Below are positions 9,502 through 11,755 of a DNA stretch of 64,000 nt, piece after piece (within the stretch, counting starts at the first letter, position 1; each line of letters starts with the position of its first letter). The position numbers and the translations under genes are program-made. The notes under the pieces were generated by a model, which saw nothing but the letters and a program-made list of their open reading frames with translations, was not told the origin of the DNA and made no database searches. The stretch lies in NCBI GenBank assembly GCA_038893355.1, contig JAWARQ010000004.1:96001-160000 (forward strand). The letters run 5' to 3'. The DNA comes from Sulfolobaceae archaeon (lineage in GTDB: Archaea > Thermoproteota > Thermoprotei_A > Sulfolobales > Sulfolobaceae).

Positions 9502-9891
9502 ATGCGAATATCTAGCAGAGAACTAAGATACCTTAAGGTAATAAAACAGATATGTGAAACTGAAGGTACTGCAAGGTTAACTAGAATTGCTAAAGAATTA
9601 TCCTTAAATCCATCAAGCGTATTTGATGAGATAAATCATCTAGTAGAAAAGGGTTTTGTAAAACGAGAAAGTAGAGGTGTTAAGCTTACTGAAGAAGGAG
9701 AAAGATTATTAAACGAGATAAAGAGAAATCATAGAATAATAGAATGTTTTTTTGAAAGAATAGGGATACCGTTATCTCAAATATGCGAATATGCTGAACA
9801 AATTGATTACATACTACCTAGTGATGTAATAGATAAGATATATGTATATATAGGAAGGCCTGCCAAATGTCCACATGGGAAGGATATATGA
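9502..9891 (+). CDS. DtxR/MntR family metal-dependent transcriptional regulator
   Basis: YLKVI...IAKELSLNPSSV HTH, HRIIECFF, C-terminal CPHG motif. Confidence 0.9.
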   Translation: MRISSRELRYLKVIKQICETEGTARLTRIAKELSLNPSSVFDEINHLVEKGFVKRESRGVKLTEEGERLLNEIKRNHRIIECFFERIGIPLSQICEYAEQIDYILPSDVIDKIYVYIGRPAKCPHGKDI

Positions 9892-10493
9892 ATTTAGATT
9901 ATTATTTATATTATACGGGAAATTACATTACATTATTCATACTAATGCTCTTAGAAGGGATGTCTCTTCCAATCCCTAGTGAAGTAATACTTCCGCTTGT
10001 CGGATATTTGTCTTATAAGCAGCTAATGGATCTAAACCTAGGCATAGTTATTGCTACATTTGGAAGCTTGACAGGATCTATTATTGATTATTATATAGCG
10101 TTAAAACTAGGAAGACTATTTTTGTATAAGTATGGGAAATTTTTTAAATTAAATCAAAATTCTTTAATTAGACTAGAAGTTTGGTTTAATAAATATGGTG
10201 TGATTACCGTATTTCTATTCAGATTTATTCCGGCATTAAGAGCATTAATCTCATTTCCTGCAGGCCTTGTAAAGATGAACATAAAAGTTTTTGTTTTGCT
10301 AACATTCTTAGGTCACTTTATTTGGGATTTCCTTCTAGCATATTTGGGATTTCTTTTTGCTAATAATATCGACTATTTTATAACGTCATTAGAATCATAT
10401 CTTAATATCTTGCTAATAATATCGACTATTTTCATAATAATTTTTATAATTTATAATATCTTCTTAAAAAATAGGAGTATCTCGAAAAATTAA
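9888..10493 (+). CDS. DedA family membrane protein
   Basis: LEGMSLPIPSEVILP, GSLTGSIIDY, FRFIPALRALISFPAG. The likely start ATG at 9888 overlaps the regulator stop (ATGA). Confidence 0.9.
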   Translation: MNLDYYLYYTGNYITLFILMLLEGMSLPIPSEVILPLVGYLSYKQLMDLNLGIVIATFGSLTGSIIDYYIALKLGRLFLYKYGKFFKLNQNSLIRLEVWFNKYGVITVFLFRFIPALRALISFPAGLVKMNIKVFVLLTFLGHFIWDFLLAYLGFLFANNIDYFITSLESYLNILLIISTIFIIIFIIYNIFLKNRSISKN

Positions 10494-10552: not shown

Positions 10553-11047
10553 ATGAGAATTTCAGAGTATTATATTTATGTTGTACTTATTACTATGTTA
10601 CTGATAATACTATTTCTATCACTTGCACCATTTGTACCAATAAATGAACCACTATTCTTTAACGGAGTAAACTTATTCCTACCAGTAGGAGTTTCGTTTT
10701 CAGCAGCATTAGCACTCTTTAGTTTCATAATAATTTTCCTCTTGTTCAGTACTTCTAAGAATGTCTGGATTAATATTCTAATTGATAGTACTGCATTAAC
10801 ATTCTCAATCTTAAACTATATTAATATATTCTTAATTTGGAGTATTTGGCATCCTTCTTTAGTTATTATACCTTTTTTCCTCTTAATATTTTATAATGGT
10901 TCTAGTGCTTTGTGGTTAGATTTTGGGCAAATAATACTCCTGATATTCTTTTATAGGTTGTATAAAAATTATAGAAGTAGTAGAAGGCCCCGCCCCCTAT
11001 CTGGGTCTGACAGCACTGTTACTGGTGATTGGATGAAGACTCATTAG
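10553..11047 (+). CDS. Hypothetical multi-pass membrane protein (C-terminal tail overlaps an H/ACA RNA)
   Basis: 4-5 hydrophobic segments. The last ~20 codons are GC-rich and coincide with the RNA hairpin. Confidence 0.7.
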   Translation: MRISEYYIYVVLITMLLIILFLSLAPFVPINEPLFFNGVNLFLPVGVSFSAALALFSFIIIFLLFSTSKNVWINILIDSTALTFSILNYINIFLIWSIWHPSLVIIPFFLLIFYNGSSALWLDFGQIILLIFFYRLYKNYRSSRRPRPLSGSDSTVTGDWMKTH

Positions 11048-11063
11048 CCGGGCGGGGTACAAA
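10987..11063 (+). ncRNA. H/ACA pseudouridylation guide sRNA (single hairpin with K-turn)
   Basis: Basal stem GCCCCGCCC (10987-10995)/GGGCGGGGU (11050-11058); pocket strands CCUAUC and UUAGCC; upper stem UGGGUC/GACUCA; K-turn-like CUGA...GAUGAAG; ACA at 11059-11061, 15 nt from the top of the pocket. Confidence 0.75.
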
Positions 11064-11117
11064 GATGATGAGGTCGACATATTCTCGAGAAATGAAGAGG
11101 GGTCGATATGCTGATGA
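11063..11117 (+). ncRNA. C/D box guide sRNA targeting 23S rRNA helix 89 region
   Basis: C box AUGAUGA 11065-11071; degenerate D' (UCGA); C' AUGAAGA 11092-11098; D guide GGGGUCGAUAUG complementary to 23S CAUAUCGACCCC; D box CUGA 11111-11114. Confidence 0.85.
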
Positions 11118-11755
11118 ATGAAATTGAAGCTTTAAGGAATGAAGTAATTTCTTGTAAAAAATGTAATCTATGGAGAACTAGAAAAAATGCAGTACCAGGC
11201 TATGGTGACCCTAATGCTACGATAATGTTTATTGGAGAAGCACCAGGTGCAACAGAAGATGAAGAAGGAAAACCATTTGTTGGTAATGCTGGAAAGCTAC
11301 TTACTAAAATGATTCAAGAAGTTTTAGGTCTAACTAGAGATCAAGTATACATTACTAATTTAGTAAAATGTAGACCTCCAGGAAATAGAGATCCAACAGA
11401 TGAGGAAATAATTGCATGTAAAGATTATCTCGAAAGAGAAATTTCTTTAGTTAGGCCAAAATTAATAGTAACATTGGGAAATCATTCTACTTCTTATATT
11501 TTTAAGAAGGCTAATTTACCATATAGCAGTATTACGAGAGTTAGGGGAAAGAGTTATAGTGTCGAAATTTTGGGGATTAAGATAACAGTTTTTCCTACTT
11601 ATCATCCTGCAGCTGCACTGTATAATCCTAAATTACAATTAGAATTATATAATGATTTTAAAAGGATAAGAGAATTACTAGGCATAGAAAATAAAAGGGT
11701 AACATTAGATGTATTTTTTAAGGCGGATAAAGATGGATCTGGGGATAAAAAATAA
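11114..11755 (+). CDS. udg: Family 4 uracil-DNA glycosylase (Fe-S)
   Basis: CxxC (SCKKC), GEAPG, NLVKCRPPGNRDP, TYHPAA, and a C-terminal PIP-box-like VTLDVFF. The ORF track starts at 11108; ATG 11114 is more likely given the sRNA. Confidence 0.95.
   Translation: MNEIEALRNEVISCKKCNLWRTRKNAVPGYGDPNATIMFIGEAPGATEDEEGKPFVGNAGKLLTKMIQEVLGLTRDQVYITNLVKCRPPGNRDPTDEEIIACKDYLEREISLVRPKLIVTLGNHSTSYIFKKANLPYSSITRVRGKSYSVEILGIKITVFPTYHPAAALYNPKLQLELYNDFKRIRELLGIENKRVTLDVFFKADKDGSGDKK

Follow-up and report, generated by a model that had tools for sequence, protein, structure and literature searches.

We analysed a window of 64,000 nucleotides (nt), comprising positions 96,001 to 160,000 of the forward strand of contig JAWARQ010000004.1 from the genome of an uncultured Sulfolobaceae archaeon (GenBank assembly GCA_038893355.1). 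The window contains a box H/ACA guide small RNA (sRNA) which is directly followed by a box C/D sRNA. The two RNAs are located between an open reading frame (ORF) for a hydrophobic protein and a gene of the uracil-DNA glycosylase (UDG) superfamily, here called udg (Table 1). The region 10987-11114 is almost certainly the composite guide-RNA gene of the Sulfolobaceae which was first described as Sso1/Sso-159 in S. solfataricus. Both the composite arrangement and the function concerning the transfer RNA (tRNA) for tyrosine are already known, and the element studied here is a new member from an uncultured genome. The initial annotation, made from the window sequence alone, treated the arrangement as novel, but it had been described earlier (Muller 2009, PMC2651775).

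Table 1 Features of the composite guide-RNA locus and its surroundings (positions in the window; bp, base pairs; aa, amino acids)
Feature	Position	Strand	Basis
Hydrophobic ORF, 164 aa	10553-11047	+	ORF list; no Pfam family
Candidate archaeal promoter with two TATA-like elements (TTTATAGG at 10950-57, TATAAAAA at 10961-68)	10950-10968	+	Sequence; putative
Single-hairpin box H/ACA guide sRNA, Sso1/sR115 homologue	10987-11061	+	Fold, R2 model, covariation, pocket complementarity
H/ACA lower stem, 9 bp (8 G-C pairs and a closing G-U)	10987-10995 with 11050-11058	+	
H/ACA 5′ pocket CCUAUC (6+6-nt internal loop with the 3′ pocket)	10996-11001	+	
H/ACA upper stem, 7 bp	11002-11008 with 11037-11043	+	
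Kink-turn (K-turn): GA opposite the bulge GAU, then GA	11009-10; 11032-34; 11035-36	+	
H/ACA 3′ pocket UUAGCC	11044-11049	+	
ACA box, 15 nt from the upper end of the 3′ pocket strand	11059-11061	+	
Linker AAG between ACA and C box, 3 nt	11062-11064	+	Sequence
Box C/D sRNA, Sso-159/sR4/sR39 homologue	11065-11114	+	Sub-threshold Rfam, conserved guides, 23S duplexes
C box AUGAUGA	11065-71	+	
D′ guide, 12-13 nt	11072-83	+	
D′ box, irregular CUCGA	11084-88	+	
C′ box AUGAAGA	11092-98	+	
D guide GGGGUCGAUAUG, 12 nt	11099-11110	+	
D box CUGA	11111-14	+	
Uracil-DNA glycosylase superfamily gene	11108-11755	+	Pfam PF03167, E 1.2e-40; tblastn synteny

All parts of the two RNAs described in the initial annotation were found in place. 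The hairpin has all the features of an H/ACA RNA, i.e. the lower stem, the pocket, the upper stem, the K-turn, the ACA box and a bipartite target. Its apical part above the K-turn comprises 21 nt, compared with 8-17 nt in the aligned relatives. The C/D RNA has all four boxes (C, D′, C′ and D), guide spacers close to 12 nt and guides that can form 9-bp duplexes. The D′ box is one nt longer than in the relatives. The 3-nt linker leaves no room for a second promoter, as had been proposed. The two TATA-like elements precede the hairpin by 19-38 nt and fall within the 3′-terminal part of the hydrophobic ORF. The mRNA of this membrane-protein gene, which had been suggested as the source of the RNAs, is not needed, since a TATA-like A/T-rich element was seen by eye about 20-38 nt upstream of the hairpin at family loci both with and without the membrane gene.

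The window hairpin folds with a minimum free energy of -35.8 kcal/mol (z = -3.57), and none of 200 shuffled sequences folded as well. A covariance model of the H/ACA RNA only (R2), which was built from 32 hairpins of the family and one hairpin from family f7 with the window sequence excluded, gave a score of 61.5 bits (E 9e-15) in the window. The conservation and covariation of the hairpin, named in the initial annotation as a check, were examined in 35 family sequences. In this alignment, which was fitted to the model and is therefore biased towards the structure, 94.6% of cells were paired and compensatory changes occurred in 12 of the 17 pairs; at most 58.9% of cells were paired in the control in which the 3′ partners were slid by 1-3 columns. 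The GA and UGA columns of the K-turn are invariant in the alignments A1 and A3. Of the 35 relatives, 33 have ACA and the other two GCA as the box 3′ of the lower stem. The shuffles, the covariance model built without the window sequence and the compensatory changes confirmed that the H/ACA fold goes beyond chance.

A BLAST search recovered the composite from 17 of 41 relatives. With R1, a covariance model covering both modules, full-length matches were obtained in 46 of the 47 genomes of the window's family (f1), and 37 of these composites were inspected as sequence. The scores were 87.9-124.7 bits in 45 genomes and 65.3 bits in G020. In G020 (locus L092, genus g11), both modules are kept, a 16-nt insertion follows the (G)CA and the D′ guide is replaced. 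The linker between ACA and C box is extended to 18 nt in this genome, whereas it has 0-8 nt in the other 34 of the 35 aligned loci. In G008 (L091, genus g9), the C/D RNA occurs alone, without an adjacent hairpin, and scores 47.9 bits with R1. Outside the family, within a 121-genome sample of the order, none of 107 genomes exceeded 49.2 bits with this model. Eight alignments from these genomes were read; seven represent the C/D sRNA alone and one a different composite. A scan with a degenerate C/D pattern gave 111 stretches, many of them chance bacterial matches. Among the 80 matches listed, the composite was present at 110-115 bits in four named Sulfolobaceae records (Acidianus hospitalis, Metallosphaera yellowstonensis MK1, Ca. 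Aramenus sulfurataquae and Sulfolobaceae archaeon RB850M).

The pocket of the H/ACA RNA matches the intron-containing precursor of tRNA-Tyr(GUA). The gene of this pre-tRNA is located on another contig of the genome, reads ...CCCGGCU-GUA-GAUAGGGGG... and has a 17-nt intron after position 37. In this precursor, G37 and the five bases that open the intron read GAUAGG, to which the 5′ pocket CCUAUC is perfectly complementary. The sequence GGCUG at positions 30-34 forms the other duplex with (U)UAGCC of the 3′ pocket, G34 being part of a U-G pair, and U35 and A36 lie unpaired between the two duplexes (GGCUG-U35-A36-GAUAGG). The target GG(C/U)URR-U-N-GAURGG had been predicted from the pocket in the initial annotation; its 3′ half holds as GAUAGG, but five nucleotides (GGCUG) instead of six are present on the 5′ side and the exact pattern is absent from the genome. 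The search of rRNA and tRNA for the pocket complement that had been recommended led to the anticodon loop and intron of tRNA-Tyr and not to rRNA. A wobble-tolerant form of the target pattern occurs twice in the 1.4-Mb genome (0.76 occurrences expected), and one of these occurrences is tRNA-Tyr. With the relaxed consensus (up to 3 substitutions), scattered matches were obtained, and the only two in the rRNA operon carry 3 mismatches. The anticodon loop of tRNA-Ile(GAU), GGCUGAUAACCGGG, was also considered and rejected because of 3 mismatches in the 3′ arm.

The covariation of guide and target across the relatives, rather than the match in a single genome, is decisive for the assignment to tRNA-Tyr. 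The 21 family genomes for which both the hairpin and the tRNA-Tyr gene were available were examined for pairing between the 5′ pocket hexamer and the six bases that follow GUA. The intron starts vary considerably (GAUAGG, GAUGGG, GAUAAG, GAUAGA, GAUUGG, GGUAGG, GGCGAA, GGUGGA and others), and 13 distinct combinations of guide and target occur. Nevertheless, the hexamer pairs with the target of its own genome at 6/6 positions in 16 genomes and at 5/6 in one. When the guides were compared with the differing targets of other genomes, the mean was 4.4/6 and 16% of the comparisons reached 6/6. A match of 7/7 was seen by eye in two further genomes (G003 and G015). The remaining four of the 21 genomes belong to the genera g7 and g10 (hairpins L051-L054, L059 and L070; tRNA-Tyr L029 and L031-L033). 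Their guide UCCUCC reaches only 3-4/6 in the canonical register, in which the window guide pairs, but it pairs 6/6 with GGAGGG five bases deeper in the intron.

These results are in agreement with what was published for the homologues. The H/ACA RNAs Sso1 of S. solfataricus, Sto1 of S. tokodaii and Sac1 of S. acidocaldarius were reported to be "directly flanked" by the C/D RNAs Sso-159, sR4 and sR39, respectively (Muller 2009, PMC2651775). M. sedula Mse2 and A. pernix Ape7 were predicted in the same study as further guides for the pseudouridine at position 35 (Psi35) of pre-tRNA-Tyr. The reconstituted Sso1 ribonucleoprotein (RNP) produced Psi35 in vitro, and northern hybridization in S. solfataricus revealed a long form comprising H/ACA and C/D RNA and a short form consistent with the free H/ACA RNA (PMC2651775). 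The proposal of a composite or co-transcribed RNA, made for the window from the sequence, matches this pattern. In S. islandicus, the Cbf5-associated sR115 guides the modification of tRNA-Tyr(GUA) U35 across the intron, and its deletion abolished Psi35 in tRNA-Tyr and slowed down growth (Li, Wu, Ye 2024, PMC11077068). The window RNA resembles Sso1/Sso-159 in having a K-turn and ACA hairpin for Psi35, followed by a C/D guide for 23S domain V, probably on a common transcript. It differs in its longer apical stem, in the 3′ pocket UUAGCC instead of CAGCC and in its origin from another, uncultured genus. It resembles sR115 as a classic H/ACA RNA with tRNA-Tyr U35 as the predicted target; a C/D module attached to sR115 is not mentioned in the available part of the report (PMC11077068).

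The targets of the C/D module were sought in the 23S rRNA of the same genome, which reads ...CCCAUCGACCCCGCGG...CGAUGUCGGCUC... in the relevant region. The D guide forms 9 Watson-Crick bp with positions 2617-2625, and the fifth position from the D box is U2618. According to the alignment with E. coli rrlH, this nucleotide corresponds to U2479, which is the site named approximately in the initial annotation. The pairing of the D′ guide with AUGUCGGCU through wobbles was also borne out: it forms 9 bp, two of them G-U, with positions 2642-2650. The fifth position is U2643 (E. coli U2504) if the box is read as in the relatives (CUGA/CGGA/CAGA, 3-nt gap), and A2642 (E. coli A2503) if the extra nucleotide shifts the box (UCGA reading). 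Both predicted sites are located in helices 89-90 of the peptidyl-transferase centre. A literature search revealed no methylation data for these positions. Sso-159 was proposed to guide the modification of 23S U2621, and positions 2645 and 2648 were predicted as well (Muller 2009, PMC2651775). A constant offset of 3 nt would match U2621 to U2618 and 2645 to A2642. Muller 2009 was the only publication found in the literature search on Sso-159 and U2621.

Both the D and the D′ guide are conserved within the family and across the order. A stand-alone C/D sRNA with the same guides (GCCGACAU and GGGUCGAU) was observed in the families f5, f7 and f11 (L087, L088, L094, L083-L085 and L090). Since the same C/D RNA is kept there as a stand-alone gene, the pair of 23S targets seems to be older than the fusion.

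These observations suggest how the composite might function in the cell. A single promoter, probably the TATA-like region, would drive a transcript of about 130 nt with two guide modules. The H/ACA module would assemble with L7Ae at the K-turn, with Cbf5 at the lower stem as well as the ACA box, and with Nop10 and Gar1. It would bind the intron-containing pre-tRNA-Tyr(GUA), and Cbf5 would convert U35 to pseudouridine before splicing. The C/D module would assemble with L7Ae, Nop5 and fibrillarin and would methylate 23S U2618 and either U2643 or A2642, and the transcript would be partly processed to the free H/ACA RNA. The genome encodes Nop10, a Cbf5-type protein with a TruB_N domain, fibrillarin, L7Ae and TruD/aPus7. 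Protein binding and pseudouridylation activity are known from the homologues (Muller 2009; Li 2024), and a long and a short RNA, as seen in the relatives, may also be formed from the window gene.

Several observations weigh against assigning the window element to the published RNAs and their targets. No match was obtained in the window at the Rfam gathering thresholds, and Rfam has no family for the composite; the Rfam search suggested in the initial annotation gave only generic C/D matches below threshold (e.g. snoPyro_CD with 21.5 bits, the cut-off being 45). The homology to Sso1/Sso-159 rests on matching published descriptions, namely the organism group, the target, the arrangement and the 23S positions. 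The source of Sso-159 itself is said to be Tang et al. 2005. The target match within one genome is statistically weak when taken alone (two occurrences against 0.76 expected). The 5-nt offset in g7 and g10 departs from the classic geometry with two unpaired nucleotides; in these genera, either 7 bases of the substrate would stay unpaired or the duplex would be interrupted. Finally, the irregular CUCGA sequence leaves the predicted D′ site uncertain by one nucleotide.

There are also other ways to explain the locus. The composite could be just a dicistronic precursor in which a cut between ACA and C box invariably releases the RNAs of separate sRNA-protein complexes (sRNPs), so that the fusion merely shares a promoter; we consider this a serious possibility, although somewhat short of an even chance. 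The short RNA in the northern analysis is consistent with a free H/ACA RNA (PMC2651775), archaeal C/D sRNAs are commonly trimmed from longer transcripts while the sRNP protects their body (PMC7994747), and neither module was lost in G020 when the linker grew. The long form is, however, stable enough to be detected by northern hybridization, and a length of 120 nt was reported for Sso-159 (Muller 2009, PMC2651775). Moreover, the short linker in 34 of the 35 loci and the adjacency of the modules in 46 of the 47 genomes are tighter than promoter sharing needs. It is improbable that the composite is mainly a cis-regulatory leader of udg, in which L7Ae or the C/D RNP on the D-box K-turn would hide the start codon and couple the UDG level to sRNP assembly. 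The overlap of the D box with the udg start had been noticed before and is real: one ATG is at 11108, inside the D guide, and the other at 11114, overlapping the last A of the D box. The latter is the start conserved as CUGAUG in the relatives. In 9 of the 35 family loci, the gene and the D box overlap or directly adjoin each other (the window and L051-L054, L058, L061, L062 and L072; genera g1, g2, g7 and g14). As seen by eye, these loci have no T-rich stretch after the D box, whereas several loci without udg have one; its absence suggests read-through into udg. C/D genes overlap the starts of downstream ORFs in 7% of cases, and such a 5′ overlap lowered the transcription of a downstream reporter (Tripp 2017, cited in the review PMC7994747). 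In the other family loci, udg lies 13-200 nt downstream (7/35), upstream on the opposite strand (3/35) or is not found within the fetched flank (16/35), and both guides are conserved whatever its position. Because the overlap occurs in only 9 of the 35 loci, it cannot explain the composite. No publication on an overlap of udg with a C/D RNA was found in the literature search.

Most archaeal H/ACA guides target rRNA. It is nevertheless highly improbable that the hairpin is an H/ACA guide for rRNA, or that it is not a guide at all and serves as a GC-rich terminator or stabiliser of the membrane-protein gene, the end of which it overlaps. A pattern of the rRNA type gave no match in the genome, and no rRNA target was found by Muller (2009, PMC2651775) either. 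The hairpin is equally present at 14 of the 35 loci which lack the membrane gene upstream, one of them too short to assess. The K-turn, the correctly spaced ACA box and the pocket which co-varies with the tRNA-Tyr intron argue against both of these readings.

Of the 107 genomes outside the family, 47 gave a match with the model R2, each with a single H/ACA hairpin. The pockets of the 16 such hairpins that were read fit the tRNA-Tyr of their own genomes. As in A. pernix Ape7, the 5′ strand ..CUCAC is directed to GUA-GUGAGG and the 3′ strand CGGUC to GGCUG. Ape7 may also guide the modification of a 23S site (Muller 2009, PMC2651775). In contrast to the window, no C/D pattern was found within 110 nt downstream of the H/ACA RNA at 11 such loci from the families f2, f3, f8 and f11; of the 35 known composites, this pattern detects 30. 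A G+C-rich element (GAUGAGCGUGCCCCCUCGCGCCCCC-like) is conserved 20-50 nt downstream of the H/ACA RNA at L114, L117, L119 and L122 in the families f2 and f8. No Rfam match at gathering thresholds was obtained in five loci of other families, including this element.

In genus g20 of family f7, the H/ACA RNA is followed after 3-21 nt by a different C/D sRNA. This was seen by eye at 5/5 loci (L111-L113, L115 and L116 in the genomes G040, G030, G082, G125 and G072), and the pattern detected it at four of them. The guides of this C/D RNA are ..AACCGGU and the D guide CCUAGACCAG. The D guide is complementary at 12/12 positions to the D-loop of tRNA-Gly(CCC/UCC) of the same genomes, with G18/G19 at the fifth position. 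Two of the nine loci fetched with the D-guide pattern are tRNA-Gly and the other seven look like chance matches. The g20 locus looks like a second, non-homologous fusion of H/ACA and C/D RNA, and it may be the only part of this analysis that is new. The occurrence in two families with different C/D partners raises the question of whether the fusion itself is under selection, beyond the sharing of a promoter. This would fit a C/D RNP acting as a 3′-end cap or assembly platform of the single-hairpin H/ACA RNA, or a bifunctional RNP of the long form, but we regard such selection as rather unlikely.

The neighbourhood of the composite is partly conserved. The hydrophobic ORF ends with 61 nt that are shared with the H/ACA RNA, the UAG of the 3′ pocket serving as its stop codon (TAG). 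The C-terminus of the hydrophobic protein and the RNA constrain each other since they share this sequence. In 21 of the 35 family loci, a homologue of the ORF is located directly upstream and its alignment extends into the hairpin; the hydrophobic ORF of genus g5 stops at a UAA within the apical loop. The genera g2, g3 and g8 share the arrangement of membrane ORF, composite and udg in this order, which looks ancestral. The ORF 9867-10493, located upstream of the hydrophobic ORF, encodes a protein with a membrane domain of the VTT (DedA) type (PF09335, E 7.9e-22).

In the composite scaRNAs of eukaryotes (small Cajal body-specific RNAs), e.g. U85, a single molecule contains a C/D domain with an H/ACA domain nested in it or joined to it, and both domains act on snRNAs within Cajal bodies. 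The Sulfolobaceae RNA likewise combines guide domains for methylation and pseudouridylation in one molecule, which is an analogy and not a homology. Unlike in scaRNAs, the modules are arranged in tandem, their predicted targets are one tRNA and one rRNA, and a short, cleaved form is known. The locus can also be compared with archaeal dicistronic precursors of tRNA and C/D RNA, in which a C/D RNA without its own promoter is located downstream of a structured RNA (Randau 2012, PMC3491384; PMC7994747). The upstream partner is an H/ACA guide here, and RNase Z therefore cannot generate the 5′ end of the C/D RNA. C/D genes which overlap the ends of ORFs, with boxes overlapping start or stop codons as in the window, were also described (PMC3491384; PMC7994747).

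Pseudouridylation of tRNA by an H/ACA RNP and the co-transcription of H/ACA and C/D RNA have been known from the literature since 2009, with genetic confirmation in 2024. The present analysis provides a confident annotation of two previously unannotated guide RNAs in an uncultured Sulfolobaceae genome, for neither of which Rfam has a model. It also predicts three modification sites, which are Psi35 of tRNA-Tyr and, in E. coli numbering, the methylated nucleotides Um2479 and Um2504/Am2503 of 23S rRNA. If the fusion itself proves to be under selection, it would be an archaeal counterpart of the eukaryotic composite scaRNAs. The covariation of guide and target gives independent support to the tRNA-Tyr assignment, and the observation published for three species is extended to essentially the whole family.

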